This document shows positions 14,479 through 35,016 of a stretch of DNA of 64,000 nucleotides, in pieces (position 1 is the stretch's first letter; each line of letters begins with the position of its first letter). Location of the stretch: the IMG/VR virus record IMGVR_UViG_2974610597_000001. The stretch is one strand, 5' to 3'. The DNA is from Escherichia virus ESCO5 (Duplodnaviria; Heunggongvirae; Uroviricota; Caudoviricetes). Under the pieces are notes generated by a model. That model was not told the DNA's origin. It saw only the letters and a program-made list of their open reading frames with translations, and searched no databases. Made by a program: the position numbers and the translations under genes.

Positions 14479-14951
14479 TGGCAGATTTAACTACGATCAA
14501 AGTTTCTGATCTTACACAAACAACCTCTGTGTCTGATACAGATTTCTTTGTAACAGATCAGGCTGGAATAACAAAGAAGACTTCTTTGAAAGTGCTGTTG
14601 AGTGGTGCAGGGGTAACTAGAAACCGTTTAAATGCACGGGGAACAGTAACTAGCACCTTGGCATTAGATATTAGTTCAGCAGAATATTTTTCGGCAACCT
14701 TATCTTCTGCAACGTGCACAATTAGTTTTACTAATATTCCAGTAGCAACGAATGCAGTTTTAAACTTTACTTTAGCTTTGCGTCAAGGAAGTGGCGCAAA
14801 TAAAGTCGTATGGCCTTCTTCTGTAAAATGGAGTTTTGGTCGTTCCCCAGTTTTGAGTTATCGTCAAGGTGCAACAGACACTTTTGAGTTTATCAGTTAT
14901 GATAATGGAGCAACTTGGACAGGTAGCTTAGTTTTAGCAGGAGTTATTTAA
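14478..14951 (+). CDS. hypothetical baseplate or tail-fibre-associated protein
   Basis: 157-aa ORF whose start overlaps the upstream stop. Confidence 0.4.
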   Translation: MADLTTIKVSDLTQTTSVSDTDFFVTDQAGITKKTSLKVLLSGAGVTRNRLNARGTVTSTLALDISSAEYFSATLSSATCTISFTNIPVATNAVLNFTLALRQGSGANKVVWPSSVKWSFGRSPVLSYRQGATDTFEFISYDNGATWTGSLVLAGVI

Positions 14952-17827
14952 TGTCAAGAGTTAAGCACAATATTGACAACACGTTTCAGTTGATTGAAGG
15001 GTTGGTTCAGTTTTTGGAAAGAAATACTGGGCTTACCATAGATCCTACGGTTCAGCATTACATTATCAACCCACAAAACGTATTGGCGAACAACAGACAC
15101 TTTATTAACTGGACAGCGCAGGAAGGGCAACCAAACGGTGACGCTACTACCGAAGGTCAATCTGTGCTTATCACTGGTTTTGCTTATGCATATTTGGCTA
15201 CAGGGGATAAAAAATATCTTGAATCTGCCGAGAAGTATTGGCAAGCCTATATAGATCACTTCTTCGGGGGCCAACCTATTCCTGATCCTCCAGCTAAATA
15301 TCGTCCCAACTGGATCATCAATGGTAAAGAACCACGTTTAGCACATTACCCTCTCACAGATGATGGGTATCCTACGCACGGCGGGTTCAAAGGTAGCATG
15401 ATGACTTGGATTAACGGAAGGACTGTTATTCCTAAAGGTGCACCGCATTGGGGGGAATACTTAGATAAAGCTTGGTTTGCTTTCAATGGCAATCTTGGTT
15501 GGAACTCCGTTAACGCAACAGTTTATGCAACTAACCCAGATGGTTCAACTAACTGGAAAGAATATGGAGATCAGTGGGATGTTGAATGGATTATAGATCG
15601 TCTAGGACGTAAAGTTGATTGGGATGGTAACATCTTATCTACAGGTCACAGCTTTGCAGAATATGGAACAGTGCAACTTAAAAATGCTTCTGTGAACGGT
15701 GACTATAAATTCAACTACGCTACATGCAACCCTGTAGAACACGGTGGATATCTGCTTAAGCGTAATGAGATGTGGCATAACCGTCCTGTAAACGTTCCGG
15801 TAGAATTAGGTTATCAAGATAATGCTTCCGATGCGGAAACGTGGTGGTGTGATGCAAACTACTTGATGTATCAGATCACAGGAGAGAGAAAATACTGGCT
15901 TTGCTGGCAATCTTCTTTATTGCTGTGTCAAGACTACTCAAACATTGATATGTTTGATAAATTCTTCCGTAGATCTACGACAGCAATAATTCCTTTTACA
16001 GATGGTATCTCTTATGATTACTCATACCCATCTACAGCAATACCTAAATACTCTCGTGACGAATTAGGATACACAGTAATTCGACAAGATGTTGCAGCCC
16101 AAACAACTCTAGAACAACAGGCAGTTTGGTTCAGAGTGGATCAGAATTCAAAACTGCGTATTGAGTTTCAAGGTGTAGATGATGCAGGGGAAGGTATTCT
16201 TTTCCGTCCAGAGTTAGAATTAAGCAAGACTAAGAGTGAAACAGACACAGTGACATATCGTTGTGGCTTACCTCTTGGTGCAGCTAATATGACTAAGATG
16301 GATATACCTTTATCTAGTTTTATGCGCACCGAACCTCCTGGAGGTGGTGTATATATTATTGCTGAACCTAGAATCATTGTTGACTGGGGAAGCAATACTG
16401 TGATACAATATAAATATGCAACTGGTATTGCTGGGACAAATAGTGATCAGATAGTTTCTGCTAATATGGATTCAGATGGTGGTTTTACTGTTGGGTTTTG
16501 GTTAACACCAACTAAAACAGCCAATTTAAAATCTATTACGTATCGTTCATACGCAGATGATTTTAACATCACTATTACGGATTCCGCAGGTTGGAGATGG
16601 TGGGCCATGTTAGAAAAAACAAATTCTACATGGGTTACTAAAGCTTTAAGTCCTGCTGATTTCAAATTAAGTACTTGGCAACCTAATCACGATGACACAG
16701 AGACAAAACCTTCGTCAATAAACCTGACTGCTATTGATCAGATCAATATTGCATTGGATTCTGAACCTGCAAATGGCTTGACAGGGGCAATCGATTTTTA
16801 TTGCGTTAACGATATCCCATCTTTGTATTCTTCAGCCACTGGTGATGACTACACAATGTATTTCAGGGTTACAGTTTCATCTGAAAATCCTTATACAGCA
16901 AAACTTGGAGATTGTACAATACTGGACTACAAACTTGACAGTTTGAATTATACTCCAGGAATCATTCCATTTTCTAATATTAGCGATCCTAACACAGCAT
17001 TATATGACGGTTGGCGCGGTATTCCTTACCCAGGTTATCAATACCCATCCTTATATTGTTTTAAAGGGAGAGATATTGATTGGGTTCGTATGAACAACAG
17101 TATAGACTTTTTATATGATTCACAAATGTGGTTTTATAATAAGTTTGCCCCTGTGATGCCTGGGCCAATGGCACAAGCTTATGTTTGGGATCGTTGGGAT
17201 GCTCATAAATACGGAAACAAGAATGAGTTCACAATGTATCATTGGAACGATAAAGCTTGGGATGGGTATGAAGCACGAGCATTCTTCTGTGCGTGTCATA
17301 CAGTATACGAACTTAAACAACGAGGAGCAGAAGTTCCTGAAAAACTTTTAACAGTTTGTAAAAACTGGATCAACTATCTGAAGTGGTTCCAAGACAACAA
17401 CGAAGGAAGAACACCAACAATATTTTATCCCAATGGAGAAGTGGCAGCGCCTGTAGATGACTTTACAAGTCACATGTCTGCGCTCTTTATGGCAGGATGT
17501 GCTATAATGGGGATGGCTGGATATGATTCAGAAATTCCTAACATTAAAATAGTAGCAGACCGCTGTTTTGAACTTATTCAGGAAAATTATATTGTTCTTG
17601 GTCCTAATCATGTTATGAATGGCTGTTGGAGTTCCGCTCCTAGACCAGATAGTGATAACGGAGTCTTCTTTGGCTTCCACGCTGGAGAGTTGTTACGTGG
17701 TTTTGGGTTGTATGCTTTATACAAAAAACTTAATCCCCAAAATGCATTACCTGTTTTGGATTCGAGCAATATTCCTGCACTTACTGTTTTGACAATGGCA
17801 AACATTAGTGTGGACGTTACCGAGTAA
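14951..17827 (+). CDS. large tail fibre or tailspike protein 1
   Basis: 958 aa, Trp/Tyr-rich; first of a run of large receptor-binding-type proteins. Confidence 0.5.
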   Translation: MSRVKHNIDNTFQLIEGLVQFLERNTGLTIDPTVQHYIINPQNVLANNRHFINWTAQEGQPNGDATTEGQSVLITGFAYAYLATGDKKYLESAEKYWQAYIDHFFGGQPIPDPPAKYRPNWIINGKEPRLAHYPLTDDGYPTHGGFKGSMMTWINGRTVIPKGAPHWGEYLDKAWFAFNGNLGWNSVNATVYATNPDGSTNWKEYGDQWDVEWIIDRLGRKVDWDGNILSTGHSFAEYGTVQLKNASVNGDYKFNYATCNPVEHGGYLLKRNEMWHNRPVNVPVELGYQDNASDAETWWCDANYLMYQITGERKYWLCWQSSLLLCQDYSNIDMFDKFFRRSTTAIIPFTDGISYDYSYPSTAIPKYSRDELGYTVIRQDVAAQTTLEQQAVWFRVDQNSKLRIEFQGVDDAGEGILFRPELELSKTKSETDTVTYRCGLPLGAANMTKMDIPLSSFMRTEPPGGGVYIIAEPRIIVDWGSNTVIQYKYATGIAGTNSDQIVSANMDSDGGFTVGFWLTPTKTANLKSITYRSYADDFNITITDSAGWRWWAMLEKTNSTWVTKALSPADFKLSTWQPNHDDTETKPSSINLTAIDQINIALDSEPANGLTGAIDFYCVNDIPSLYSSATGDDYTMYFRVTVSSENPYTAKLGDCTILDYKLDSLNYTPGIIPFSNISDPNTALYDGWRGIPYPGYQYPSLYCFKGRDIDWVRMNNSIDFLYDSQMWFYNKFAPVMPGPMAQAYVWDRWDAHKYGNKNEFTMYHWNDKAWDGYEARAFFCACHTVYELKQRGAEVPEKLLTVCKNWINYLKWFQDNNEGRTPTIFYPNGEVAAPVDDFTSHMSALFMAGCAIMGMAGYDSEIPNIKIVADRCFELIQENYIVLGPNHVMNGCWSSAPRPDSDNGVFFGFHAGELLRGFGLYALYKKLNPQNALPVLDSSNIPALTVLTMANISVDVTE

Positions 17828-17835
17828 GGGGTAAA

Positions 17836-19989
17836 ATGAAACAAGCTATATTTACTGTCACGCGAGACAAGAGAGTAAATGCGAGTTCATTTAACTACAC
17901 GACTGTTGATGGAACAGCAGTCGCTGGTAGAGATTATATTGCAAAATCGGGAACACTTGTGTTCCCTGATGATGCTGATTCTGCTACCATTGTGGTTGAA
18001 GTATTTGAACGACCAAAGAACTCAATAGATCTTAACTTCTCCCTCCAAGTTTCAGGGATTAGTCAAAATAACATGATGGTTGAAACGACCATCAACTGTA
18101 TTATAACTACGATTCAAGAAAATACTACTCCAATAACTTGGACTACAAAAGACGTTAAAATGTTCTCTCCTATGTATTGGACAATAGATTCTCAAGCAAC
18201 GGAAAGTTGTTCTATTGTATCTCATGGAGACTCTTTTACTGCAAGATTTGTAAACAGAACAACAGCAGGTTTGGCAGGGGTTATCTGGAGCACAGTTGAC
18301 AAATATGACCATAAAGGTGTTGGGTATTTACCCCACACAGATTTAAGTTCAGAGAAACTTTGGTTTAAAATGGAAGTTAGTCAAAACATGCCAGGTTTTA
18401 AAGAAGAACCTTTGGTGCCAACTTTGACTGTAACTCTCTTGGATAAAAGTGTCCACTATGTTAGTTTAGGATTTTATGCTTCAGATATTTCAGAAGATGG
18501 TAAAACAGCTACAATCAAACTAGATTTTGGTAATATCTTCTCTGGTCCTAATAATGATATTCCTTTGGACATGAGTGCTGTAGATAATATTTTCTTCTCT
18601 TTGATTACAGCAAGGTATGAAGAAATAGAAGAGATTGTACCTATTGATAGTCAAGAGGCTTGGTTTACTTTCACTCTTCTTGAACCTACTTCTGGTTATA
18701 GTATGATGAAAGTCAGTAACCTTGTCCAGCCTGAACATGATATTCGCATGTGCACATCTTATGACGATATGTATAACCTGACTCCAGAGAGAGTTATTTA
18801 TAATACATATGCGCTAGGTTATCGTGGAATGATTAACCATTACAACGGAATGTCTCACTATTATGAGTTCTCATGGAACGGAACATCTTGGGCTTTAAAT
18901 AGATCTGTCTTCCTGAATCCAGCTACAGAAGCTTGGCTAAATAGTTTCCATTCTATAGCGAACGAGAAGGGTTACACAATAATGAACTCTTTAAGTTTTG
19001 AGTTGATGAGCACAGTTTGTCCTGTAGAATGGGTCCAGCATGATTGGAACGATGCTCTTGCAGCAACAGGGTATGAGCCTCCTAGTTACGTGTTGTCTCC
19101 AACTATTGACGAAGGTATGAAATATTTGCAAAATGTTATTAATAAAATAGCATCTATTTCGCAAGCTAATAATATTCCAGTTGTCATTCAAATTGGTGAG
19201 CCTTGGTGGTGGTATAATACAGCGAGTAAAATGCCTTGTATATACGATTACACTACTAAACTAGCATTCAACACAGAAACAGGTTTATTTGCACAAGATG
19301 TAGGAACAATAGATAATTATAAAACAGGAACACCGTTTGACGAATACTATGCATTTTTGTCTCGTAAACTAGGATTAAGAGTTGCAAAGTTTGCAACAGA
19401 TACTAGATTAGCCTATCCTGGAGCTAAAGTTACATTATTACCATTTGTGCCATCCATTTTAGGTAACGGTATGATGGAGTTTGTTAACTTCCCTAAAGAT
19501 TATTATATCCCAGAAAACTTCGACTTTTATTGTTCAGAGTGTTATGACTGGTTGTTGGAAGGTAAGATGGAAAAATCTTTTGACGCTATCACAATACCTA
19601 ATGAACAATTAGGTTTTAGTTATGATAAGATACATTATCTTGCAGGTTTTGTTCCAGATGCTACTCTTGCACCTTTGTATAGCTTTGATCCTGAATCAAA
19701 CTACCGCACGTATCTTTGGAAAATGATTATAGGTAACATAGTGTTGAACGCCAATAAGTTCAATGGACTTACACAATATATATGGGCCTATCCTCAAATA
19801 ATGCACGATTCTATCACGGTAGTTAATTCTCAATCCCAAGTTTTCTATATGGGTAACGTGCCTTTGAACGTTTATTTACAGGATATCACTCTTAAACAGG
19901 TAAATGTTGAGATTGCCACCATAAGTGGAATTACATTAGCCACTAAATCTGGAGAAGATTTAGTAACAACACAAAAATTTTATATATAG
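17836..19989 (+). CDS. tail fibre or tailspike protein 2 with N-terminal Calx-beta-like domain
   Basis: 717 aa; N-terminus (NYTTVDGTAVAGRDYIAKSGTLVFPDDADSATIVVEVFE) matches the Calx-beta pattern. Confidence 0.5.
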   Translation: MKQAIFTVTRDKRVNASSFNYTTVDGTAVAGRDYIAKSGTLVFPDDADSATIVVEVFERPKNSIDLNFSLQVSGISQNNMMVETTINCIITTIQENTTPITWTTKDVKMFSPMYWTIDSQATESCSIVSHGDSFTARFVNRTTAGLAGVIWSTVDKYDHKGVGYLPHTDLSSEKLWFKMEVSQNMPGFKEEPLVPTLTVTLLDKSVHYVSLGFYASDISEDGKTATIKLDFGNIFSGPNNDIPLDMSAVDNIFFSLITARYEEIEEIVPIDSQEAWFTFTLLEPTSGYSMMKVSNLVQPEHDIRMCTSYDDMYNLTPERVIYNTYALGYRGMINHYNGMSHYYEFSWNGTSWALNRSVFLNPATEAWLNSFHSIANEKGYTIMNSLSFELMSTVCPVEWVQHDWNDALAATGYEPPSYVLSPTIDEGMKYLQNVINKIASISQANNIPVVIQIGEPWWWYNTASKMPCIYDYTTKLAFNTETGLFAQDVGTIDNYKTGTPFDEYYAFLSRKLGLRVAKFATDTRLAYPGAKVTLLPFVPSILGNGMMEFVNFPKDYYIPENFDFYCSECYDWLLEGKMEKSFDAITIPNEQLGFSYDKIHYLAGFVPDATLAPLYSFDPESNYRTYLWKMIIGNIVLNANKFNGLTQYIWAYPQIMHDSITVVNSQSQVFYMGNVPLNVYLQDITLKQVNVEIATISGITLATKSGEDLVTTQKFYI

Positions 19990-19997
19990 GAGTAAAA

Positions 19998-22763
19998 ATG
20001 TCAACTACAATTACTAATTTACCCGAAACATCAAAAGTTAATGGTTCTGATTACCTGGTTTTAGACCAACCTGATAAGACTGTTAAAAGCACAGTTTCCA
20101 ACTTTCTTACTGACACTGGGGTGGTTTTAGCCACCCAGTTAAAAGATATTTCTGGAGCTACCAAGTACCCAGAACTTCAAATGTCACGCTGGAGAGATGA
20201 AGGTGATCCTAGAGGATGGGGAGCAGTAGGTGACGGAGCAACAGACGATACCAATGCCATAACACAGCTTCTTGCTGCTATGCCTGATGGATGGATTATT
20301 GATGGGCGTAATCTCACTTTCAAGGTTACAACACTACCAGATATAAGCAAGTTTAAAAACGCTGCTTTTGTTTACGAGCGTATTGTTGGACAACCCCTTA
20401 CTTATGTATCTGAAGGTTTCTTCGATGGAAATCTGACAAAGATTACGGATACACCATTTTACAATGCTTGGACGCAAGATAAGACGTTTGTTTATGACAA
20501 TGTTATATATGCACCATTTATGGCTGGCGAACGTCATGGTGTACAAAACCTCCATGTAGCGTGGGTTAAATCAGGAGATGATGGACAAACTTGGTCTATG
20601 CCAGAATGGTTAACTCCAATTCATCCTGATTATAATGCCTCTTCAGCAAACAAAGTTAACTATCATTGTATGAGTATGGGCGTATGTGGTAATCGCCTAT
20701 ATGCAGTCATCGAAACCCGTTATTTATCTAACATGCGATTGAAGAAAGCAGAACTTTGGTCACGTCCAATGCCTTATTATAGAAGGCCAACTGGAGGTAT
20801 AACAATTAGTTCTGGGTCTACTACGGCGACGATTGTTTTAGAAAAGCATGGTCTTAAAGTTGGAGATGCTGTTAACTTTTCCAATTCAGGTGCAACTGGT
20901 GTATCTGGAAATATGACTGTTGCATCTGTAATTAACAAGGATACATTTACTGTTACATTAGCGAGTGCTGCCACATCTAATATAGATAATACAGGAACTA
21001 CTTGGCATTTTGGAACACGTTTCTGGGATAGCCCTTGGGAAATTACAGAATTACCAGATGTTGCCTATTCTACTAATGCAGACTTATGTGTTACAGAAAC
21101 CCATAGTTTTACAGTTATAGATGATGATAATTACACTTTTGCTGTGGGTTATCACAATGGTGATGTTTCCCCAAGAAGATTAGGTATTTTGTATTTCAAT
21201 AATGCTTACTCTGACCCAAGTTCTTTTACTCGTAGAACAATTAGTCAAGAATATGCTGACAATGCAGCAGAACCCTGCATTAAATATTATGATGGAATTT
21301 TATATTTAACTACTAGGGGTACTTCAACTTCTGCTGCTGGTTCTACATTAGCAATGAGTGCTGACCTTGGAGAAAACTGGAATTACTTAAGATTTCCTAA
21401 CAACGTTCATCATACAAACCTACCATTTGCAAAAGTTGGTAACTACCTTTATATCTTTGGTACAGAACGTTCATTTGGAGAATGGGAAGGAGAAGAACTA
21501 GATAATAGATATAAAGGTACGTATCCTCGAACGTTTATGTGCAAGATTAATGTATCTGCATGGCCTGCATCTTTATCCGATGTTCAATGGTTTAATATCA
21601 CCGATCAGATGTATCAAGGGCATATTGTTAATTCTGCATGTGGTGTTGGTTCGGTATGTGTTAAAGATGGTTGGTTATATTATATCTTTGGAGGCGAAGA
21701 TTTCTTATCTCCTTGGTCTATTGGGGATAATAGTAAAAAATTATGGTACAAGCACGATGGTCATCCAGCCGATTTATATAGCTATAGACTAAAGATTACC
21801 GAACATGATTTTGTATCACGTGATTTCAAATATGGAGCTACGCCAAACCGTACATTGCCTGTATCTATGGGTACAGATGGGGTAAGGCATGTCTCAGCCC
21901 CTGTAACTTTTGATAATGATGTGCAAGTACACTCTTTAACAGTTACTGGTCTTGAGCATGATGGGACACAACAATCTGCCGTTAGAATAAAATTAGATGG
22001 TGATTATGGGGTTGTTGCAAAAAATGTCCCAATAAAAAATCCTTCTGAACAGCGACTAATCTTATGTGGAGGAGAAACTCCTTACGTTACTGATGGATCG
22101 CTATTACAACTATATGGTTCAAACCATACGTATCCAAACAGAGCAGTTTTATATGCCCCAGGAGGAGCATATACCCAAAATAATTTCATGCCATATTTAG
22201 ATGGACAAGTTGCATTAGGTGGTGCATCTAACAGATGGTCAGAAGTGTACGCATCTACAGGAACCATTAATACTTCAGATGGAACATTAAAAACTAAACC
22301 TACAGAGATTGAAGATATTTTACTGAAAGCGTGGGAAGATATTCATGTAATCTCTTATCAATGGCTGAGTGCTATCGCGGAGAAAGGAGATTCTGCGCGT
22401 ATTCATTTTGGTGTTATAGCTCAAGATGTAAGAGATATTCTGATTAATTATGGTTTAATGGATGAAAATAGCACTGATTGTAAGTATGCTTTTCTGTGTT
22501 ATGATGAATACCCTGCTATGTACGATAGTGTTGTTACGGGACAAAAAGAAATCCCTTTATTTGATGATGAAGGGAATGTTGTAATTGATGAAGAAGGTAA
22601 TCCAGTAACAATCGTAGAAGATGTTGTAGAAACTATCGAAATAATTCCAGCAGGATCGCGATGGGGTATCCGCGCTGACCAAATGTTTTTTATTGAGATG
22701 GCTTATCAACGTAAAAAGTTAAAAGCTCTTGAAGAAAGACTTGCAACCCTGGAAAGTAAATAA
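19998..22763 (+). CDS. tailspike with Asp-box motifs and C-terminal S74-type intramolecular chaperone domain (sialidase-like)
   Basis: 921 aa; GDGATDDT motif near the N-terminus, Asp-boxes SGDDGQTW and SADLGENW, and a C-terminal TSDGTLKTKPTEIEDI...GVIAQDV segment typical of autoproteolytic chaperone domains. Confidence 0.6.
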   Translation: MSTTITNLPETSKVNGSDYLVLDQPDKTVKSTVSNFLTDTGVVLATQLKDISGATKYPELQMSRWRDEGDPRGWGAVGDGATDDTNAITQLLAAMPDGWIIDGRNLTFKVTTLPDISKFKNAAFVYERIVGQPLTYVSEGFFDGNLTKITDTPFYNAWTQDKTFVYDNVIYAPFMAGERHGVQNLHVAWVKSGDDGQTWSMPEWLTPIHPDYNASSANKVNYHCMSMGVCGNRLYAVIETRYLSNMRLKKAELWSRPMPYYRRPTGGITISSGSTTATIVLEKHGLKVGDAVNFSNSGATGVSGNMTVASVINKDTFTVTLASAATSNIDNTGTTWHFGTRFWDSPWEITELPDVAYSTNADLCVTETHSFTVIDDDNYTFAVGYHNGDVSPRRLGILYFNNAYSDPSSFTRRTISQEYADNAAEPCIKYYDGILYLTTRGTSTSAAGSTLAMSADLGENWNYLRFPNNVHHTNLPFAKVGNYLYIFGTERSFGEWEGEELDNRYKGTYPRTFMCKINVSAWPASLSDVQWFNITDQMYQGHIVNSACGVGSVCVKDGWLYYIFGGEDFLSPWSIGDNSKKLWYKHDGHPADLYSYRLKITEHDFVSRDFKYGATPNRTLPVSMGTDGVRHVSAPVTFDNDVQVHSLTVTGLEHDGTQQSAVRIKLDGDYGVVAKNVPIKNPSEQRLILCGGETPYVTDGSLLQLYGSNHTYPNRAVLYAPGGAYTQNNFMPYLDGQVALGGASNRWSEVYASTGTINTSDGTLKTKPTEIEDILLKAWEDIHVISYQWLSAIAEKGDSARIHFGVIAQDVRDILINYGLMDENSTDCKYAFLCYDEYPAMYDSVVTGQKEIPLFDDEGNVVIDEEGNPVTIVEDVVETIEIIPAGSRWGIRADQMFFIEMAYQRKKLKALEERLATLESK

Positions 22764-22783
22764 TACCGCTTAGGCGGTATTTC
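22763..22783 (+). terminator. hairpin terminator
   Basis: ATACCGC, TTAG loop, GCGGTAT, followed by TTCAATCTTT. Confidence 0.45.
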
Positions 22784-22811
22784 AATCTTTATATCTCACT
22801 TAGAGGTACTC

Positions 22812-23075
22812 ATGGTTAAAGAGAAAAACGGTTTTAAAAAATTTATTCGCGGAATGTTCTGCACTTACCCCGGCAACGGGGTAAGCTCTACGAAAGTCTG
22901 GAACGCTGTAGGCATGTCGGTTATGACAGGCATGTTTATCTTTTTAGGAATAGAAAAAGAAATTCCTGAATGGATGGGTTGGGCTTTTGTTTTCATGATA
23001 ACCCCTTCTCGCCTCATGAAAAATCTTATTGATTTACGTTGGGGCAGATCACAATCTACCAAAGAGGATGACTAA
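22812..23075 (+). CDS. small two-TM membrane protein (holin-like candidate)
   Basis: 87 aa with two hydrophobic segments (MSVMTGMFIFLGI, WMGWAFVFMITP) and a charged C-terminus; RBS GAGG. Confidence 0.3.
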   Translation: MVKEKNGFKKFIRGMFCTYPGNGVSSTKVWNAVGMSVMTGMFIFLGIEKEIPEWMGWAFVFMITPSRLMKNLIDLRWGRSQSTKEDD

Positions 23076-26820: not shown

Positions 26821-27156
26821 ATGGAATTTCAAGAAGCATGGGGACTTGCAAAGGATGCAATAATCCCTTTAATCGGAGTCATCTGGTTCTTTTTCAAACA
26901 AAAAATGGATAAATTCGGCTCTGATCTTGAGGAAATGGAGGAGAAAAGTCGAGAGCTAGAGAAGAAGTTGGTCTTTGTTGAATCAACTTATGCAACTAAA
27001 GCCGAACTTACCCAGATGCTAAATCAAATTAACTCTACATTAATGGCAAATAATAACACTCTTGAGCAAAAAATTGAAAAGATTATGGACCTCAAGAATG
27101 CGACTATCCAAATGATGCTAGATGACATAGTTAAACGTACACAGAATAAGGGGTAA
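26821..27156 (+). CDS. membrane-anchored coiled-coil protein
   Basis: 111 aa; N-terminal hydrophobic helix (IIPLIGVIWFFF) then heptad-like coiled coil. Confidence 0.35.
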   Translation: MEFQEAWGLAKDAIIPLIGVIWFFFKQKMDKFGSDLEEMEEKSRELEKKLVFVESTYATKAELTQMLNQINSTLMANNNTLEQKIEKIMDLKNATIQMMLDDIVKRTQNKG

Positions 27157-27159
27157 TTA

Positions 27160-30100
27160 ATGGCAACATTCCCAACATATCCAGCAACGTCTCTCGAACA
27201 GGGCGTAGACCTGGTTATTTTCTCATCTAACCAACTCCATGATGTTATTAATGGAAGTGCTACAGAGAGTATTGAAACAGAATCAGGGTTGATACCAACC
27301 CTGAGAAAATCCCTTGTTGACAACTTTTTCTTTAAAAGCCCATTGGATTGGGCGCAAGGCACAAACGAAACAGTTTTTAACCAACTACGTTATTTTCAGA
27401 ATGGGGTATTGAGCGGTTATTATTATGCTCCTAATGCTACATTGGTAAACCCAATTCCTATGCAAGGGACTCCAGTAGGAGATAACAACTGGGTATTGTG
27501 GGGACTGAAGACAGAACAACTAGCAACAGAAGTCACCCCTTGGGTATATTCTGGTGCAACTGGTTATGAAACAGTAATCAGTCCTCCCTACATCTTTGAT
27601 AGTGCTATTGTTACAATCAATGGTGTTATTCAGGTTCTGGGAGAAGCTTTCCGCATAGAAGATAGTAAAATCATTTTATCTGAACCTTTGGGACATGATC
27701 CTGCAACAGGACTGCCAAACAAGCTTTTTGCCTATATTGGTAAAATCGTAGCTTCCGCAGATACAGATCCTAACTTAGAAAACCGTCTTGTCAGTTTAGA
27801 AACAAAAACTGAAGAACTGACAGAAAACATGGATAAAGTACCTTTACAAACTATTGCTCGTAAATACGGTTTGTTGGATGACGAAGTAGCTTACGCAACA
27901 GCGGGTCAATCATTAACAGGGATTAAAGCTCTGTATGATCCGGTAGCACAATCTTCCTACACATTGCCTCCTAACATCACAGGGACTTTAACATCTTTGT
28001 CTGTTTCTGGAGTAATGACTTATTCTGGCGGATCTGTAGATCTTTCTGCATTAGCTGTTGAACGTGGACAGTTTGTTCATTTGCCTACAAGCTTTGGTAA
28101 TAATGTAACTCTGACAGCTAAAAATCAGACGATTGGGCGTGGCGCTGGTCGCTATCGTTGGGCGGGAAGTTTACCAAAAAGTATTTTAGCTTCTGATACA
28201 TTGGAAACAAGTGGTGGATTAGGTCCAAATGCATGGGTTCTAACTAATACAGAAGGACTGTTAACCCCTCGTGGTGGAACATACAACGATTTATTCGATG
28301 TTGTCCGCTTATCAGAATTTGCTAACAATACAACTACCTATACCACACCAGAAGCAGCTTTCCAGGCGGCACTGTTAGCAGCAAAAGCTTCGAAAAGTAA
28401 GATTCTCGACGCTTACGGTTGTGATATGACTTTCACGACAAGCTCTTTTGATATTCAAGATATCACTTTGCGTGGGGGTGTGTTCCGTGGTCAACGCGAT
28501 TATCGTGTGCAAAATGCTACAGTAGAAGGCACAACTTTCCGTAACTCTCGTGTTATGTATTGGGGTGGTGCTGTGCGCATGTTCGATTGTTTGTGGGACG
28601 GTGCTCCTCGCGCAGGTCAAGTTGGTAGCTTGGTATTCCAAGGAAACCCAATATCAGGTACTTTTGAAATTGATAATTGTACTTTTAAAAACGGGTTATA
28701 TGGCATCCTTCAACAAGGAACAGGGGAACCAGTAACACGCGGTGTCTTCCGTAACCTTACCTTCATGGACATGCAAGGTGATGCAATAGAACTGAACGTC
28801 ATCAATAAACATTATGATGATGGTTGTGTGATTGAGAATATTTACCTGTCTAATATTGATGGGACTAACGCTCCTATTCCTCTGTCCAACTGGGGTATCG
28901 GTATTGGTGTGGCTGGTAAAGGACCATATGGTTACGGAATTCCTGATGATCAATATTGCAAGAATATTACAATTCGTAACGTTTTTGCAAAACGTTGTCG
29001 TCAGATTGTCCACGTAGAAGTTGGTCGTAATATTTCTATCGAAAACATTCATGGCGATCCAGATCAAACTGTATCTGTTGGGACAGGTTTGGCAACTGGC
29101 GCAGTTGTAATGTATGGAAGTAAAGATTTTACGATTGATGGTGTTTACGGAGAGCCTAAAACAGACGGTAGCACACTTGCAAGTAATATCCGTATGATTT
29201 ATTTGGAGTGGGGAACTAACGCAGTTCTGGATGAAGAGGGCAATCCGGTAGTTCCGGCACAGGGCAGACCTTCAAACCCATGCTTTAACTATTCTGTTCG
29301 TAACATTCACACCAAAACTGGGCGTGTTTTTGCAGGAGTTTCCGCTGGGCCAGGTTATGAAAACAGAGTCAGCTTTGAGAATATCCATTGTGCTGCGTTG
29401 CAGTTGTTCGGTGTAGCTTCTTGGCTTTCAATGTCTAACATCACCTGTAATATCTTTGATTGTGTTGGTCAACCTGAATCTGGTCCAGGGACATTTTATG
29501 ATGGATTCTTCCGTAGAGAAAAATCTGTTCTTGAGATGGTTAACGTAAACTGTTACCCAGATGGCAAGACTATGGTTACTGGTCGCCCACAGTGGAGCCG
29601 TTGCCGTTACTCTGATATTCATCGTGTCAACTGTAATGTTGAAGCTAATATGTATACCAATATCGCAGGTGGTATTGGAGCTATTGTAGGGACAACTGGC
29701 AAAGTTTATTACTTAGAGCCTAACCCTAGCCGAAACATTGATGGGATGCATTTCCCAACAGGGAAGGAGTTTGACAAAGGGGATATGATAGTCAAAGCGG
29801 ATAATACGTTCTTCCTTGTAACAACAAGTGGGGCATACATTCCAGATATCCCAGCTTTCGGTATTCGAGCTACACAAGCAGGAGATACCTTCCTGACACA
29901 GAACTTGACTCCTAATGGGACAGCAACAAACGCTTCTTGGTTGTATCACTATCCTCTGTCAGCAGGAACACGTATCCGTATTCCTGGTGCTGGTGTAGGT
30001 GGAGCAGATTTGGACACAGTTATTACTCGTGCACCTTATCAAGATAATGATACGTGGACTAACCCAGTTAAAATAGACATTGCAGATCCAATTGTAACGC

Positions 30101-30213
30101 CTACGAGTGCTGGAGTTAGAATCAAAACCATACCTAACGATTCTAGTAATGTTTCTGTAGGTAATACTGCGGTTATTCGCCCAACACCAGTGGTAGATGT
30201 GCCAACAACCTAA
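27160..30213 (+). CDS. tailspike with parallel beta-helix depolymerase domain
   Basis: 1017 aa; central region has repetitive beta-helix rungs (NCTFKNG, NITIRNV, NISIENIHGD). Confidence 0.55.
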   Translation: MATFPTYPATSLEQGVDLVIFSSNQLHDVINGSATESIETESGLIPTLRKSLVDNFFFKSPLDWAQGTNETVFNQLRYFQNGVLSGYYYAPNATLVNPIPMQGTPVGDNNWVLWGLKTEQLATEVTPWVYSGATGYETVISPPYIFDSAIVTINGVIQVLGEAFRIEDSKIILSEPLGHDPATGLPNKLFAYIGKIVASADTDPNLENRLVSLETKTEELTENMDKVPLQTIARKYGLLDDEVAYATAGQSLTGIKALYDPVAQSSYTLPPNITGTLTSLSVSGVMTYSGGSVDLSALAVERGQFVHLPTSFGNNVTLTAKNQTIGRGAGRYRWAGSLPKSILASDTLETSGGLGPNAWVLTNTEGLLTPRGGTYNDLFDVVRLSEFANNTTTYTTPEAAFQAALLAAKASKSKILDAYGCDMTFTTSSFDIQDITLRGGVFRGQRDYRVQNATVEGTTFRNSRVMYWGGAVRMFDCLWDGAPRAGQVGSLVFQGNPISGTFEIDNCTFKNGLYGILQQGTGEPVTRGVFRNLTFMDMQGDAIELNVINKHYDDGCVIENIYLSNIDGTNAPIPLSNWGIGIGVAGKGPYGYGIPDDQYCKNITIRNVFAKRCRQIVHVEVGRNISIENIHGDPDQTVSVGTGLATGAVVMYGSKDFTIDGVYGEPKTDGSTLASNIRMIYLEWGTNAVLDEEGNPVVPAQGRPSNPCFNYSVRNIHTKTGRVFAGVSAGPGYENRVSFENIHCAALQLFGVASWLSMSNITCNIFDCVGQPESGPGTFYDGFFRREKSVLEMVNVNCYPDGKTMVTGRPQWSRCRYSDIHRVNCNVEANMYTNIAGGIGAIVGTTGKVYYLEPNPSRNIDGMHFPTGKEFDKGDMIVKADNTFFLVTTSGAYIPDIPAFGIRATQAGDTFLTQNLTPNGTATNASWLYHYPLSAGTRIRIPGAGVGGADLDTVITRAPYQDNDTWTNPVKIDIADPIVTPTSAGVRIKTIPNDSSNVSVGNTAVIRPTPVVDVPTT

Positions 30214-30221
30214 TGGAAATA

Positions 30222-30245
30222 GAGAGGGGGATTCCCCCTCTTCTT
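30222..30245 (+). terminator. hairpin terminator
   Basis: GAGAGGGGG, ATT loop, CCCCCTCTT. Confidence 0.5.
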
Positions 30246-30277: not shown

Positions 30278-32302
30278 ATGAATTTAACAAGACCTAATAG
30301 TGCGATAGCCGATCTAGTAGAAGCTACTTATCGAAAACGTCGCAGTTTTGAGGCAGGTTTTACATTACGTAATTCCCGTGAAGTTTTGCTGTTAGCGGCA
30401 GAAGGGAATTATTACCAATGGAAAGGAACTTTTCCTAAAGTAGTTCCAGCAAACTCTACGCCAGCCACCACAGGTGGTATTTCTTCCCTTGCATGGCAAA
30501 GTGTTGGGACCGCTGATGATATAGCAATTATCAATGCCAAGTTTACGGCAATGCAGCAACAGATTGATGATCTGTCGGAAACAATACCTGAAGCTGGTAA
30601 ATCGGCTTATCAGATCGCACTTGATAATGGTTTTGTTGGAACAGAAGCACAATGGCTTGCTTCTTTGAAAGGGGATACTGGTGCTCAACTTAATATTAAA
30701 GGATCATTAGCAAGCACTAGTGAACTACCATCTACAGGTAACGTAGCAGGTGATGGTTATATTGTAGGAGATGTAATCTACGCTTGGGATGGGGCTGTTT
30801 GGAAACTTATCTCTTCTCTTGGGCCAGAAGGGAAATCAGCTTACGAGGTATGGTTAGCAGATGGTAATACAGGATCTGTTTATGACTTTCTTGCCTCTAT
30901 AAAAGGTGATAAAGGAGACGTTGGTCCTACAGGTCCACAGGGTGCACCTGGTGTCAACGCTAATGGTTTTGATTACCGTGGAGATTTGCCTTCTACAAGT
31001 AACTTACCACAACCTAACTCTGAAAACGTAAGCCAAGCTTATTCTATTAATGGTAATCTTTATGTCTCTAATGGGACAGCTTGGGTCAACATGGGTAATA
31101 TTGTTGGTCCTCAAGGTCCACAAGGTGAGGCAGGTAAAGACGGTCTAGATGGAACAGATGGAGACGAAGGGAAATCTGCATATCAAAGTTGGCTGGATGC
31201 TGGTAATGAAGGGACAGAAGTAGATTTTATTGCCTCACTTAAAGGTCCAAAAGGAGACAAGGGTGATCAAGGAGAGCGAGGTCCACAAGGTGAACTAGGT
31301 CCACAAGGACCAGTGGGTGCAACAGGATCAGGTTTAGAGATTATCGGGGTTCTGAACAGCGAAGCTGAACTTCCTCCTACTGGAGAAGTAGGTGATGCAT
31401 ATAAAATTAATAATGATTTGTATGTTTGGGTTCAAGATGCTACAGAATGGATGAATGTAGGCAGTCTTGGAGGAACATCAATTACAGCTAAAGGTCATGT
31501 TCCGAACAGTGAAGCTCTCCCTGTTTATAATAACTACGGTGATGCCTATTTAACTGAAGACACTAGTAATCTTTACATCTATACCTACGATCAAGACACC
31601 AATTCCGCATCTTTTGTTGACATGGGAAGTATTAAAGGCGACAAAGGTGAAAAAGGGGATAAAGGAGATAAGGGTGATCCTGGAACAAACGGAACCAACG
31701 GTACTGATGGGACCAACGGTAAGGACGGCGCACAGTGGTTTGTAGCAACAACTAATCCAGTCACAGGAGACGGTGTTATCAATGATTACGCCTTCAATAC
31801 TACCACTGGAGCAGTATTTAAGAAAACAGATTCTTCTACGTGGACACTTATAGGAACTCTTCCTAGTATACCAGAAGCCCCTCAAGACGGCTTGACGTAT
31901 GGTCGTTCTGATGGAAACTGGATCGAAATATCAGGATCAGATCCTACGGAAGCTATAACACCAACTAGAGTTACAGCAGGTTTCATGGAACTTGAAACAA
32001 CTACTGCCAACTCTGGAGCATCTTGGACTCCTTCTGGAACTTCCAATATGTATGTTGTTACAGTAACTGACGCTCTGACAGTTGGAGCATGGCCTGGTGT
32101 CACTGGCTCTACAAAACCTAAAGCGTTTTCAGCAATGATTTATTTGATTCAAGATACAACGGGACACACGGTTACACTAGATGCGTCTTATGGAGCACTA
32201 AATGATACAGAAATAGCAACTACTGCTAACGCAGTAACAATTTTGCAATTAACGTATCCTGGTGTGGGTGATATCGTGGACATGGTTGTTGTAACACGAT
32301 AA
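30278..32302 (+). CDS. collagen-like tail fibre protein
   Basis: 674 aa with four Gly-X-Y tracts, three copies of a GKSAY..WL..G..G...DF.ASLKG motif, and four copies of a ~40-aa LP.TG..GDAY...LY.W...W...G motif. Confidence 0.7.
   Translation: MNLTRPNSAIADLVEATYRKRRSFEAGFTLRNSREVLLLAAEGNYYQWKGTFPKVVPANSTPATTGGISSLAWQSVGTADDIAIINAKFTAMQQQIDDLSETIPEAGKSAYQIALDNGFVGTEAQWLASLKGDTGAQLNIKGSLASTSELPSTGNVAGDGYIVGDVIYAWDGAVWKLISSLGPEGKSAYEVWLADGNTGSVYDFLASIKGDKGDVGPTGPQGAPGVNANGFDYRGDLPSTSNLPQPNSENVSQAYSINGNLYVSNGTAWVNMGNIVGPQGPQGEAGKDGLDGTDGDEGKSAYQSWLDAGNEGTEVDFIASLKGPKGDKGDQGERGPQGELGPQGPVGATGSGLEIIGVLNSEAELPPTGEVGDAYKINNDLYVWVQDATEWMNVGSLGGTSITAKGHVPNSEALPVYNNYGDAYLTEDTSNLYIYTYDQDTNSASFVDMGSIKGDKGEKGDKGDKGDPGTNGTNGTDGTNGKDGAQWFVATTNPVTGDGVINDYAFNTTTGAVFKKTDSSTWTLIGTLPSIPEAPQDGLTYGRSDGNWIEISGSDPTEAITPTRVTAGFMELETTTANSGASWTPSGTSNMYVVTVTDALTVGAWPGVTGSTKPKAFSAMIYLIQDTTGHTVTLDASYGALNDTEIATTANAVTILQLTYPGVGDIVDMVVVTR
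30596..31730 (+). repeat. in-frame coding repeats (collagen-like triplets and tail-fibre repeat modules)
   Basis: Seen directly in the translation of 30278..32302. Confidence 0.7.
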
Positions 32303-32305
32303 CAG

Positions 32306-32330
32306 AAGCCCCGAAAGGGGCTTTCTTTTT
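32306..32330 (+). terminator. rho-independent terminator
   Basis: AAGCCCC, GAAA loop, GGGGCTT, then TTTCTTTTT. Confidence 0.7.
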
Positions 32331-32343
32331 ATGGAGGGTTTAA

Positions 32344-35016
32344 ATGTTTCCAATTCCAATATTTACTATTATGACCAGCACTGGTGTCGTTCCTCTGCCA
32401 GCAGGTATTGTTAAAAAAGTAATCACTCTAGATTACCCAGATAATGCTGGCAATTCTAATAGCAGTTTAGCAATTTTGCTTAATGATGGTAGATTGTTTA
32501 CTCAAGGCGCAAACCTTTTTGGTGAGATTGCAGATGGAACTCGTAGTGCACGATTCAATAATTTCCACTTAGCTTCTACTGTAGTAGCGGATGTGTTTAC
32601 CGCAGATCGTTGTTTTGTTATTAAAACTAACAGTGGGGGATGGCAATATTCAGGATTGACAGCAGGGTTGGTAGGATCTATAGCAGCAGGTGGTACGGAT
32701 GCATGTGTAACTACTTGGACCAGCTTTCCATCTGTAATAACAGGGACTATCTCTTTAGCCAATCTTAAAGAGGTTAAGGGAGGATATAACAACACTCTCT
32801 GGTTGATGAATAGTGGTGTTCTTTATGGATCAGGTCAAAACACAGTAGGCAGTTTAGGTGCAAGTACTACTAACGAAGTTTCTACTCCTCGTCAGATAAC
32901 AAGTGCAGCAGTTGCTTTTGATGCAGGTTACAACCAATGCTCTTATGTCAACAATGTGGGAACCTTGCGTGTTTGTGGGGCTAGTAAAGGTTTAGCAGGT
33001 AATAATAACACAACAACAGCTTTTGTCAATGCCAAGATATCCGCTACTGAAACAGTGTATGTCAAAGATTACATCAATACAGTTTCCCAGACAATAGTTG
33101 TAGGAGATACCTCCGGTGGCACGGGTACAGTAAACTACTTATATGTTAGATCTAATACAGAAACAACCTACACTAAACTGGACACCTTTGCAGCAGGTTT
33201 CTCAACATGGAAATTTCCACCAAGCCGCCACTCTTTTTTCGTTGGGATCAATAATTCCTTGTGGGCTATTGGTAAGAACTACACTGCAAACTTAGGTTTG
33301 GGGTATGATTCTGCGAGCGGAGATCCACTCCAAGTGGGAAAACCAGTTAAACCTGAAGGAGTGGGTTCCTGGGATATAAACAAGCTCACAAGCGTTCATA
33401 CACTGAATATGGATGTTACTAACCAATTAGGTTATCAAGGAACCTTTTTCGTTTATAATGGAGATATGTATTATTCAGGTATTTGGAAAGATGGGAAAGC
33501 CTCGTATCTGTTCAATAGTGGTCTAAACTATAATAAATTCACACCAATAGCAAGCTCCGTGATTACAGGGGATGTTCTGGCAACTGGCTTAACTACAGAT
33601 TCTTTAGGAATTTGTATTGTAGGTGGAACTAAACAGTTGACACATTCTGTTAGCCCAGAAGGAGGTAAACTTTTCAATATTAAATACACTTCTTCTGCCC
33701 CTGCAAACATGACAATATCATCTACTGGTTTAATGACTTTCCATGCAGAAGGTGGTTTTGATGCAGGTATGACAGCCTTAAACGCTGAAGGAACAATTTT
33801 ATCAGATACCTCTGGAGGATATGCTTCAACATTGAGTGTTTACACCCCTAGCTTATCTGCGATGGATGTAGGAACAACACAAACAATGGTAGCAGAAATA
33901 ACACCAACAGGAGCAGCAAGCTTACCTGATATGGTTGTTGAGTATACAACTACAGATCCTAATGTTGCTACAGTAGATCCTACAACTGGTGTAATAACTG
34001 GTGTTGGTGATGGTGGTTGTAGGATTGGTTGCACAGCTACGTATCAAGGTGTTGTTACCGCTTCTGATAGTTCTTATTTAACGGTGAATGCTGTTGCGGG
34101 AAAGGAGTTAGCTCCATCTCCGAGTAGTAGTTTAACGGTTCTAAACGGATATTTCAACCACTCGGCAGATGGGGCAATTACGTTCCCAACTTTATCGGGT
34201 ACTGTTACACCAGCTAACTTTGTAGTTAAGGTGGATGACGTTGTAGTTCCTTCAAGTAAAGTAATATTTAGAAACAAAGCTTTCTCTACAGTGGATAGTT
34301 ATCCAGCAGGAGAATATAGACTGGCTATTGAATTTGCAAGTGCTTCAGTAGTTAATAGTGTGGAAGTGTCTATGGAAGCAAACCCAAGTCTTTTAGAACT
34401 TTGGGGCGGTAATAGAATCAGTTATTCTACAAGCCCAGCCTCACAATTCTTAAAAGGTTGTGCTAACTTAAGACGAATAACTTCTGATTGTTTTAGTAAC
34501 ACATCTTACACCGGAACATCTATAAGCGGTATCTTCTCTGGCTGCACAAGTTTGACAGCTATCCCTGAAGGATTATTCAGTGATGCTTTATTTCCTTCAA
34601 TGACAACAATGTCAAGCACGTTTGAAGGTTGTACATCTTTAACATCTATTCCTTCAGATTTATTTAAGAATCTGTCAAAAGTTACAAGATATTCTTACAC
34701 CTTTAAAGATTGCACCTCTCTTGCAGAAGTTCCAGCAGGAATGTTTGATAATATTCCAACGAAAGTGACCTCTTTAACAGCTACATTCCAAGGTTGTTTA
34801 GGACTTACAGATTTTAATAAGATCTTTAATGACAACCCAGGGTTAACTGTTTGTGGTAAACGTGGAGCATTATCTTCTTTCTTTAGTGGATGCACAAATC
34901 TTACAGGAACAGGAACAACATTAACAAATACATTAGGCGGAGTAGCTAATAGTTACCTATTCAGGTATTGCACAAAACTTTCTGATTATAACAACATTCC
35001 TTCCGGTTATAAATAA
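32344..35016 (+). CDS. tail fibre or receptor-binding protein with Ig-like (Big_2-type) domain and C-terminal BspA-type leucine-rich repeats
   Basis: 890 aa; Big_2-like segment (TTTDPNVATVDPTTGVITGVGDGGCRIGCTATYQGVVTA); five or six C-terminal F.GCTSLT.IP..LF repeats. Confidence 0.55.
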   Translation: MFPIPIFTIMTSTGVVPLPAGIVKKVITLDYPDNAGNSNSSLAILLNDGRLFTQGANLFGEIADGTRSARFNNFHLASTVVADVFTADRCFVIKTNSGGWQYSGLTAGLVGSIAAGGTDACVTTWTSFPSVITGTISLANLKEVKGGYNNTLWLMNSGVLYGSGQNTVGSLGASTTNEVSTPRQITSAAVAFDAGYNQCSYVNNVGTLRVCGASKGLAGNNNTTTAFVNAKISATETVYVKDYINTVSQTIVVGDTSGGTGTVNYLYVRSNTETTYTKLDTFAAGFSTWKFPPSRHSFFVGINNSLWAIGKNYTANLGLGYDSASGDPLQVGKPVKPEGVGSWDINKLTSVHTLNMDVTNQLGYQGTFFVYNGDMYYSGIWKDGKASYLFNSGLNYNKFTPIASSVITGDVLATGLTTDSLGICIVGGTKQLTHSVSPEGGKLFNIKYTSSAPANMTISSTGLMTFHAEGGFDAGMTALNAEGTILSDTSGGYASTLSVYTPSLSAMDVGTTQTMVAEITPTGAASLPDMVVEYTTTDPNVATVDPTTGVITGVGDGGCRIGCTATYQGVVTASDSSYLTVNAVAGKELAPSPSSSLTVLNGYFNHSADGAITFPTLSGTVTPANFVVKVDDVVVPSSKVIFRNKAFSTVDSYPAGEYRLAIEFASASVVNSVEVSMEANPSLLELWGGNRISYSTSPASQFLKGCANLRRITSDCFSNTSYTGTSISGIFSGCTSLTAIPEGLFSDALFPSMTTMSSTFEGCTSLTSIPSDLFKNLSKVTRYSYTFKDCTSLAEVPAGMFDNIPTKVTSLTATFQGCLGLTDFNKIFNDNPGLTVCGKRGALSSFFSGCTNLTGTGTTLTNTLGGVANSYLFRYCTKLSDYNNIPSGYK

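Follow-up and report, generated by a model that had tools for sequence, protein, structure and literature searches.

The window, a stretch of 64,000 nucleotides of which the locus described here is a part, is 100% identical across the whole region to Escherichia phage ESCO5 (Phapecoctavirus). As predicted originally, seven large open reading frames (ORFs) encoding proteins of 958, 717, 921, 353, 1017, 674, and 890 amino acids (aa) lie on the + strand between positions 14951 and 35016, with wedge genes and a tail fiber chaperone gene between the fiber genes. Gaps between genes of the block range from -1 to 64 nt. The locus is syntenic, gene for gene, with gp140 to gp151 of phage phi92, and the orthologue set keeps the phi92 gene order and begins right after the genes for the baseplate hub and spike; orthologues share 60 to 97% amino acid identity (BLASTP), with the exception of the chaperone (24%). 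The chance of an open frame of ≥674 codons is ~e^-45 by our estimate (~39% GC and ~6.5% random stop codons), and all seven large proteins match phage tail PHROG families, with E values from 1e-107 down to 0. The proteins are unrelated at the sequence level: the sole cross-match, between the 1017- and 674-aa proteins, is marginal and falls where Pfam calls Tail_spike_N in both. Minus-strand ORFs of 86 to 123 aa all lie inside long + strand genes, are unannotated in the record, and were treated as spurious.

The genes form a single tightly packed + strand block, preceded by those for the baseplate hub and the central spike. A bidirectional terminator-like hairpin (35019 to 35040, both strands) detected by terminator scan closes the late + strand unit, with the gene for SSB (- strand) converging from the other side, and the sign of the GC skew flips at the same position. 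In the same scan, the 921-, 1017-, 674-, and 890-aa genes each had a hairpin after their stop codon. A scan for sigma-70 promoters gave 66 sites versus 58.7 ± 9.1 expected and is therefore uninformative on operon structure.

The first gene of the orthologue set encodes a 157-aa small tail protein (14478 to 14951, + strand) with 84% identity to phi92 gp140, which is listed as a fiber-like candidate (PMC13450770). It has no Pfam match, and its interpretation as a free-standing P2 gpI (Tail_P2_I) domain was rejected, as no BLASTP or Pfam similarity was found at E values of up to 10. The 958-aa protein (14951 to 17827, + strand) is a conserved tail protein orthologous to phi92 gp141 and has a glycoside hydrolase-like barrel, i.e., an (alpha/alpha)6 toroid fold (GH8/GH76/GH105-like) with beta-sandwich inserts, at a sequence identity of only 9 to 13% to glycoside hydrolase structures. 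Many D, E, H, and W columns are invariant in the family. The protein is glycosidase-like by fold and a putative enzyme and, instead of the fiber or spike counted in the original prediction, it is a globular tail protein. More than 500 phages, whose hosts span many genera, keep the family at full length, and 958-type bodies bear varied distal modules at the C terminus.

The neighboring 717-aa protein (17836 to 19989, + strand; 79% identity to phi92 gp142) is a candidate binder of the N4 glycan receptor (NGR). Pfam places on it the predicted Calx-beta N terminus (aa 4 to 82), followed by NCTSP_N (aa 107 to 292; E = 2.7e-16) and a TIM barrel (TIM-barrel_NCTSP, aa 299 to 658; E = 1.3e-79). The protein matches gp64 (9lc0_M, E = 4.6e-30) and gp65 of phage N4 and carries a GMSHY motif at aa 338. 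This motif has been reported for NGR-binding proteins, with NGR predictions limited to Vequintavirus, Justusliebigvirus, and Enquatrovirus and Phapecoctavirus unnamed (preprint 10.64898/2026.04.02.716166). The N4 noncontractile sheath proteins gp65/gp64 (PDB 9lc0 and 9yf4) share the homologous TIM barrel, N-domain, and GMSHY motif with the 717-aa protein. However, N4 is a podovirus in which the module surrounds the tail tube, whereas the ESCO5 module is encoded in a myovirus baseplate locus and starts with Calx-beta.

Natural fusions connect the 958- and 717-aa families. Protein P0099 consists of a 958-type body and a 717-type module (52% identity), and protein P0088, which occupies the gpI position in a P2-like prophage, consists of a P2 gpI domain and a 958-type body. 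These fusions suggest that the 958- and 717-aa proteins form one wedge-attached appendage, which, given also the GMSHY motif, would recognize the N4 glycan receptor. We infer this placement, because the 2026 phi92 cryo-electron microscopy (cryo-EM) study leaves fiber II and the arm of fiber I without gene assignment and never mentions gp141 or gp142 (PMC13450770).

The 921-aa protein (19998 to 22763, + strand) is an endosialidase tailspike orthologous to phi92 gp143 (EndoN92), with 96.7% amino acid and 96.8% nucleotide identity. The Asp-box enzyme with an autoproteolytic chaperone that had been anticipated is borne out: all four endosialidase domains (End_N_terminal, End_beta_propel, End_beta_barrel, and End_tail_spike) and Peptidase_S74 are above Pfam cutoffs, two Asp-boxes are located at aa 192 and 454, the protein matches PDB 4hiz over aa 75 to 759 (E = 0), and the cleavage site TINT|SDGT (Ser760) is exactly the one annotated in phi92. 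From the 96.7% identity to characterized EndoN92, we infer cleavage of alpha-2,8/2,9 polysialic acid. The catalytic propeller, stalk, and S74 chaperone are the same as those of K1F/K1E/K1-5 endosialidase tailspikes, but the anchor at the N terminus is found specifically in Stephanstirmvirinae and recurs on unrelated spikes of the same slot. This anchor (~50 to 54 aa; 19998 to 20159, + strand) belongs to whichever spike fills the slot: ESCO5, phi92, AV125, Ro121c4YLVW, and tuntematon have 47 of its first 50 residues in common, and the bodies downstream differ. Sequence comparison places the endosialidase in a swap slot that follows this invariant ~50-aa anchor; AV125, Ro121c4YLVW, and tuntematon have other spikes there, and in ESCO13 the slot is empty. 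The ESCO13 orthologue of the 717-aa protein lacks its last ~34 aa; a role of this segment as the spike docking site was considered and rejected, as a single deletion (window positions 19886 to 22829) is the simpler explanation.

Two small proteins, the baseplate wedge, and the short fiber with its chaperone lie between the endosialidase and the next large spike. An 87-aa small hydrophobic protein (22812 to 23075, + strand; 84% identity to phi92 gp144) is annotated in the deposited record as a membrane protein and has hydrophobic stretches. It is followed by the 495-aa wedge subunit (23075 to 24562, + strand; Baseplate_J, PF04865; 80% identity to gp145) and the 209-aa wedge subunit (24565 to 25194, + strand; DUF2612; 86% identity to gp146), which would form the baseplate periphery, as shown for the phi92 orthologues. 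The 353-aa short tail fiber (25204 to 26265, + strand; PHROG tail fiber) is the orthologue of phi92 gp147 (fiber III), with 75% identity restricted to aa 1 to 267. Its C-terminal tip differs from that of gp147, and aa 286 to 353 match a solved short tail fiber (9cuy_c). The 181-aa tail fiber assembly chaperone (26266 to 26811, + strand; Pfam Caudo_TAP) shares 24% identity with gp148, compared with 75 to 86% for neighboring genes, and has been swapped together with the fiber tip. This Mu/P2-type short fiber, folded with the chaperone, would hang from the wedge and make the final contact with the lipopolysaccharide (LPS) core, as phi92 fiber III and genetics on relatives indicate. The second of the two small proteins (111 aa; 26821 to 27156, + strand; 76% identity to gp149) is annotated in the record as a lipoprotein; its N-terminal segment is hydrophobic, and the rest is helical.

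The 1017-aa protein (27160 to 30213, + strand) is a modular tailspike, as indicated by BLASTP, PDB, and PHROG matches. It consists of a gp150-type anchor (aa 1 to 215), CBA120/G7C-type spike N-domains (aa ~227 to 367), and a colanidase-type body (aa ~426 to 1000), and aa 128 to 360 have partial similarity to Kuttervirus TSP4-type proteins. Identity to phi92 gp150 is 74% at the N terminus and 33% at the C terminus (BLASTP), and relative to gp150 the spike carries an extra CBA120/G7C-type N-domain insert of ~240 aa. The predicted depolymerase spike gains support from homology to the phi92 gp150 crystal structure (PDB 6e0v, E = 2.1e-78, aa 426 to 1000), with further matches to 4oj5, 5w6h, and 4qnl; Pfam Beta_helix was not detected in the protein. 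Its PHROG is "colanic acid degradation," and it is 47% identical to the colanic acid-degrading protein of phage NST1. By homology, the spike would degrade colanic acid, but the substrate could differ, as the catalytic body is only 33% identical to that of gp150.

The predicted collagen-like fiber is the 674-aa protein (30278 to 32302, + strand; 60% identity to phi92 gp151), which has four G-X-Y runs of 6 to 11 triplets each, a Pfam Collagen match (E = 3.6e-12), Tail_spike_N at aa 12 to 77, and a C-terminal tip (aa 560 to 671) matching a solved tail fiber (9cuy_g). Tail_spike_N (PF18668), found in both the 1017- and 674-aa proteins and in alternative spikes of the endosialidase slot, is also a component of the branched tailspikes of Ackermannviridae (CBA120 and Det7) and G7C. 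The analysis gave no evidence of XD docking domains or of a four-spike branched complex in ESCO5. The 674-aa fiber and the 890-aa protein would bind further ligands.

The 890-aa protein (32344 to 35016, + strand), characterized with Pfam, AlphaFold2 (AF2), and Foldseek, is absent as such from phi92. It comprises an RCC1-like seven-blade propeller (aa 1 to ~400; Foldseek match to UVR8/RCC1, E = 8.5e-14), two Big_2 Ig domains (aa 410 to 583), a beta-sandwich (aa 598 to 690), and a BspA-type leucine-rich repeat (LRR) region (aa 700 to 890). The AF2 model (pLDDT 84.9, pTM 0.54) is a monomeric-looking string of domains, and no baseplate anchor or trimerization motif is recognizable in the protein. 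Tandem ~28-aa repeats with the signature F-x-G-C-x-x-L-x-x-I-x-I/P include six F-x-x-C-x-x-L repeats between aa 731 and 873, aa 700 to 890 are modeled as a short-strand solenoid, and homologues P0141 to P0145 carry PF03382. These repeats, the model, and the homologues identify a predicted BspA-type LRR (LRR_5/DUF285 clan); no curated LRR-clan profile is significant in the protein (DUF285, E = 0.099, below its cutoff). There is also a match to 4psj (E = 7.6e-6), a designed LRR protein. The LRR part of the proposed BspA-LRR fiber was thus retained but is confined to the C-terminal ~190 aa, the remainder being propeller and Ig. Similarity to ESCO13 and phAPEC8-type relatives ends at window position 34094, which delimits an exchangeable C-terminal tip of ~307 aa (34095 to 35016, + strand); the ESCO13 tip is unrelated and without an LRR motif. 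The protein has been reported as TfpM1, lacking in Justusliebigvirus (PMC12695924), and its location in the virion is putative.

It is unlikely, although worth weighing, that some of these proteins serve a purpose other than adsorption, with the 890-aa protein decorating the tail or capsid through its Ig domains in a Hoc-like manner and the 958-aa protein acting as a structural or cell wall-penetrating enzyme of the baseplate that does not influence host choice. In the 890-aa protein, the Ig region matches the PHROGs "major tail protein" and "structural protein with Ig domain" and, over aa 411 to 584 only, phi92 gp152, which is annotated with a lambda gpV-like fold; the missing anchor and trimer signatures and the nearly invariant architecture of the 958-aa family across hosts also fit a nonadsorption role. 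However, relatives with 97% identity carry swapped tips on the 890-aa protein, a pattern characteristic of receptor-binding tips, the first ~190 aa of this protein reappear in a protein of the rV5 group whose annotation is lateral tail fiber, and the varied distal modules on 958-type bodies argue against a purely structural role.

Similarity to phi92 (Justusliebigvirus) extends to the endosialidase, colanidase-type spike, collagen-like fiber, short fiber and chaperone, wedge proteins, and gp141/gp142 pair. The differences are the remodeled colanidase-type spike, the replaced short-fiber tip and chaperone, the 890-aa propeller-Ig-LRR protein in place of gp152 (202 aa, Ig only), and gp153, which has no counterpart in ESCO5. 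Other Phapecoctavirus phages, including phAPEC8 and ESCO13, share 95 to 100% of the locus at 96 to 98% nucleotide identity and differ in the content of the endosialidase slot and in the phAPEC8/ESCO13-type C-terminal tip of the 890-aa protein. The lateral tail fiber loci of rV5/Vequintavirinae phages and PVP-SE1 (the "nanosized Swiss army knife" [PMC8594841]) share with ESCO5 the 958-aa family (35% identity), a gp142-type module, short fibers accompanied by a chaperone, and the N-terminal portion of the 890-aa protein. Nevertheless, rV5/Vequintavirinae identity is much lower, and rV5 has two short-fiber paralogues and different large distal fibers.

In papers citing Schwarzer et al. (2012), phi92 is the original case of a "multivalent adsorption apparatus." Cryo-EM of phi92 resolves three fiber sets per wedge, displayed together on the virion and carried on wedge protein gp145; fibers I and III attach to gp145, fiber III is assigned to gp147, and fiber I is inferred to carry gp143 (PMC13450770). 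The polysialic acid endosialidase and the colanic acid hydrolase, the latter being gp150, have both been characterized (PMC13450770, PMC8594841), and EndoN92 has been reported on the phi92 particle (PMC5374246). Of 46 E. coli strains from eight O-serogroups, 32 supported plating of ESCO5, with K1-positive and K1-negative strains among them, and the phage is not K1 dependent (PMC5374246). Infection by Vequintavirinae and phi92-like phages needs wecB/nfrB, i.e., the NGR glycan, and relatives also depend on LPS outer-core glucose (PMC8594841). Furthermore, mass spectrometry has detected rV5 orthologues of the fiber proteins in virions; for ESCO5 and all other Phapecoctavirus phages, the literature searched contained neither virion proteomics nor a structure.

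A multifiber adsorption locus of the phi92 type is already known, and the ESCO5 identity, gene-by-gene phi92 orthology, and phi92 and ESCO5 literature, including plating, support the original reading of several fiber/spike species and a broad host range, as in phi92/rV5-type phages. Its count of at least six is probably too high, because the conserved 958-aa tail protein is glycosidase-like and the fusions suggest that it and the 717-aa protein make up a single unit. A set of six or seven distinct species with separate attachment, each of them receptor binding by itself, would agree with seven large ORFs that barely resemble one another in sequence and all fall in PHROG tail families, but is improbable given the >500-phage conservation and globular glycosidase fold of the 958-aa protein, its occurrence fused to the 717-type module, and the three fiber sets per wedge of phi92 (PMC13450770). 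Capsule switching is supported as an event between related phages, which exchange cassettes at the endosialidase slot, but not within one virion. Soluble depolymerases freed at lysis would account for the enzyme folds of the catalytic bodies and for the hairpins after the 921-, 1017-, 674-, and 890-aa genes, which make separate regulation conceivable, but are very improbable, as each enzyme has an N-terminal anchor module conserved independently of its catalytic body, EndoN92 has been reported on the phi92 particle (PMC5374246), and the genes lie inside the baseplate operon.

Very probably, the locus is the host adsorption cluster of ESCO5 (Phapecoctavirus, Stephanstirmvirinae) and corresponds directly to the multivalent adsorption apparatus of phi92. 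In the working model of this cluster, the endosialidase would dock through its invariant ~50-aa N terminus and cut the K1/K92 polysialic acid capsule, an activity shown for the phi92 protein. Host range would widen in two ways: through several proteins per virion and through exchange of heads and tips behind conserved anchors over evolutionary time. More tentatively, the 958- and 717-aa proteins might constitute one two-enzyme appendage directly on the wedge, with Calx-beta as the docking piece, and correspond to the phi92 density left unassigned (fiber II or the exchangeable-spike arm of fiber I), with the 890-aa protein as a genus-specific extra adhesin with plug-in tips.

The fusions offer a concrete, testable assignment of gp141/gp142-type proteins to fibers seen by cryo-EM. 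In addition, the mapped swap points, namely, the ~50-aa slot anchor, the 890-aa tip, and the short-fiber tip with its chaperone, are practical sites for host range engineering. Their wide host range is the reason why therapy cocktails include phages of this group, and knowledge of which protein acts on which glycan helps in choosing and engineering phages, a general point established for phi92 and its relatives.

Seven large ORFs, encoding proteins of 958, 717, 921, 353, 1017, 674 and 890 amino acids (aa), lie on the + strand at window positions 14951-35016, and all seven proteins match phage tail families in a PHROG search (E values from 1e-107 down to 0). ORFs of this length are not explicable by chance at 39% GC. 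Genes in the locus are separated by -1 to 64 nt, and those between the large genes encode two wedge subunits, one of them a Baseplate_J protein, and a Caudo_TAP fiber-assembly chaperone, so that the layout proposed in the original prediction is borne out. GC skew is positive across the locus and changes sign at ~35 kb, at the switch of transcription direction. Four of the large genes (921, 1017, 674 and 890 aa) each have a GC-rich hairpin immediately beyond the stop codon (22762-22781, 30221-30241, 32305-32324 and 35019-35040, respectively); these hairpins could be terminators, attenuators or recombination-module boundaries; the last is bidirectional and ends the + strand unit. A 237-aa + strand ORF at 35115-35828, absent from the record's annotation and wholly inside a - strand gene annotated as SSB (35073-35960), is probably spurious.

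Across its 20 kb, the locus matches Escherichia phage ESCO5 (KX664695.3/NC_047776.2; Phapecoctavirus, Stephanstirmvirinae) at 100% identity, and ~60 further Phapecoctavirus genomes share 96-98% identity with it. The source host of ESCO5 was an O2:K1 avian-pathogenic E. coli, and the phage plated on 32 of 46 strains (eight O-serogroups), with K1 not required (PMC5374246). GenBank entries for nearly identical Phapecoctavirus genomes name other hosts, for example “Campylobacter phage B15” and “Klebsiella phage ZCKP1” (99% aa identity each for the 958-aa protein), and one paper describes a Phapecoctavirus infecting Acinetobacter baumannii; these labels reflect either true polyvalence or wrong host names.

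Gene order in the locus is that of gp140 to gp151 in the record of phi92, a Justusliebigvirus. By BLASTP, aa identities to phi92 are 84% for the 157-aa protein (gp140), 83% for the 958-aa protein (gp141), 79% for the 717-aa protein (gp142), 96.7% for the 921-aa protein (gp143), 84% for the 87-aa protein (gp144), 80% for the 495-aa protein (gp145), 86% for the 209-aa protein (gp146), 75% for the 353-aa protein (gp147; limited to aa 1-267), 24% for the 181-aa protein (gp148), 76% for the 111-aa protein (gp149), 74% in the N terminus and 33% in the catalytic body of the 1017-aa protein (gp150), and 60% for the 674-aa protein (gp151). The 890-aa protein differs in having only the Ig region of gp152 as its phi92 counterpart. 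The phi92 locus is a textbook “multivalent adsorption apparatus,” as outlined by Schwarzer et al. (2012). Because this syntenic locus has been described, the prediction of a phi92-like, multifiber apparatus is supported and already in the literature, and the feature is known for ESCO5 itself and its family. Only three points need correction: what kind of protein the 958-aa product is, the composite build of the 890-aa protein, and how many separate fibers there are likely to be.

Three further features of the phage were observed. The 87-aa (22812-23075) and 111-aa (26821-27156) ORFs, orthologues of gp144 and gp149, contain hydrophobic segments and are conserved within the baseplate/fiber operon. 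Directly upstream of the locus, a 244-aa central baseplate spike (13116-13850) carries a C-terminal HTHTH motif (aa 220-224) similar to the HxH apex reported to bind iron in the phi92 spike. Four consecutive glycosyltransferase-annotated genes lie on the - strand at 44367-47511, as in phi92, and a putative dTDP-sugar glycosylation machinery is mentioned in the literature on this group, with DNA or a virion protein as candidate targets.

The 717-aa protein contains Calx-beta, NCTSP_N and TIM barrel domains (Pfam) homologous to gp64 and gp65, the receptor-binding “non-contractile sheath” of N4. It also carries GMSHY at aa 338, a motif that, according to a 2026 preprint, is shared without exception by proteins that bind the N4 glycan receptor (NGR), with phi92 gp142 as the named example (10.64898/2026.04.02.716166); wecB and nfrB are needed by related phages. 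The 921-aa protein is a complete endosialidase with Asp-boxes and an S74 chaperone, matches the phi92 crystal structure (4hiz) and shares its cleavage site; its published identity to EndoN92 of phi92 is 96.7% (PMC5374246). The 353- and 181-aa proteins are a short Mu/P2-type fiber and its chaperone, and the fiber tip and chaperone have been swapped together relative to phi92. The 1017-aa spike has three modules: a gp150-type anchor is followed by CBA120/G7C-type N-domains, and the catalytic body shows homology to the phi92 gp150 crystal structure (6e0v; E = 2.1e-78) and to the colanic-acid-degrading protein of NST1. The 674-aa protein comprises Tail_spike_N, four collagen-like runs and a tip resembling a solved tail fiber (9cuy_g). 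In the AF2 model of the 890-aa protein (pLDDT 84.9, pTM 0.54), an RCC1-like propeller with seven blades (Foldseek E = 8.5e-14 versus UVR8) is joined by two Big_2 Ig domains and a beta-sandwich, and the C terminus forms a solenoid with six F-x-x-C-x-x-L repeats. These repeats are the predicted BspA-type LRRs but make up only about one-fifth of a composite protein, and in ESCO13-type relatives an unrelated, non-LRR domain replaces its last ~307 aa.

The endosialidase position is exchangeable, as judged from sequence comparison. Of the first 50 endosialidase residues, 47 are invariant in ESCO5, phi92, AV125, Ro121c4YLVW and tuntematon, and the sequence beyond differs throughout; other occupants are a 731-aa beta-helix spike (AV125) and proteins of 762 aa (Ro121c4YLVW) and 452 aa (tuntematon). 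ESCO13 has lost this position (window 19886-22829; 7600-9916 in the ESCO13 sequence). The same deletion shortens the 717-aa orthologue to 687 aa by removing ~34 codons from its 3′ end, so that this C terminus is dispensable. The endosialidase cassette has 96.8% nucleotide identity to phi92, versus 72-80% for the flanking genes, and elevated identity (about 90-99%) spans ~19336-22900, reaching into the 3′ part of the gene upstream. This difference suggests a recent cassette exchange between Phapecoctavirus and Justusliebigvirus.

Homologues of the 958-aa protein bear on how many separate appendages the locus encodes. One homologue (P0099; 1557 aa) fuses a 958-type body to 717-type residues 108-675 (52% identity), with Calx-beta alone missing. 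Its gene adjoins that of the adaptor in an SU10-like podovirus (SRR10874396 contig, 6691-11364), which indicates that the 958/717 module is passed between the baseplates of myoviruses and the tails of podoviruses. Another (P0088) joins a P2 gpI domain to the 958-type body and is encoded where gpI would lie in a P2-like prophage, directly after gpV, gpW and gpJ; further family members have differing C-terminal additions. By Rosetta-stone reasoning from these natural fusions, the 958- and 717-aa proteins are probably parts of a single appendage attached to the wedge.

In the phi92 cryo-EM structure, wedge protein gp145 bears three fiber sets; gp147 is fiber III, gp143 is inferred at the fiber I tip, and fiber II has no assignment (PMC13450770). 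Wedge architecture, the gp147-type fiber III, endosialidase structure and activity, and gp150 colanidase activity have been shown for orthologues only, and dependence on NGR and the LPS core has been shown in related phages. The ESCO5 proteins would have the same roles, with the 958/717 pair attached to the wedge, exchangeable spikes docking via the ~50-aa anchor, and the 674- and 890-aa proteins participating in receptor binding. The 2026 phi92 cryo-EM paper does not mention gp141 or gp142 (PMC13450770). At least six fiber or spike genes had been predicted; seven large tail genes are present, but the independent appendages are likely fewer than these genes suggest.
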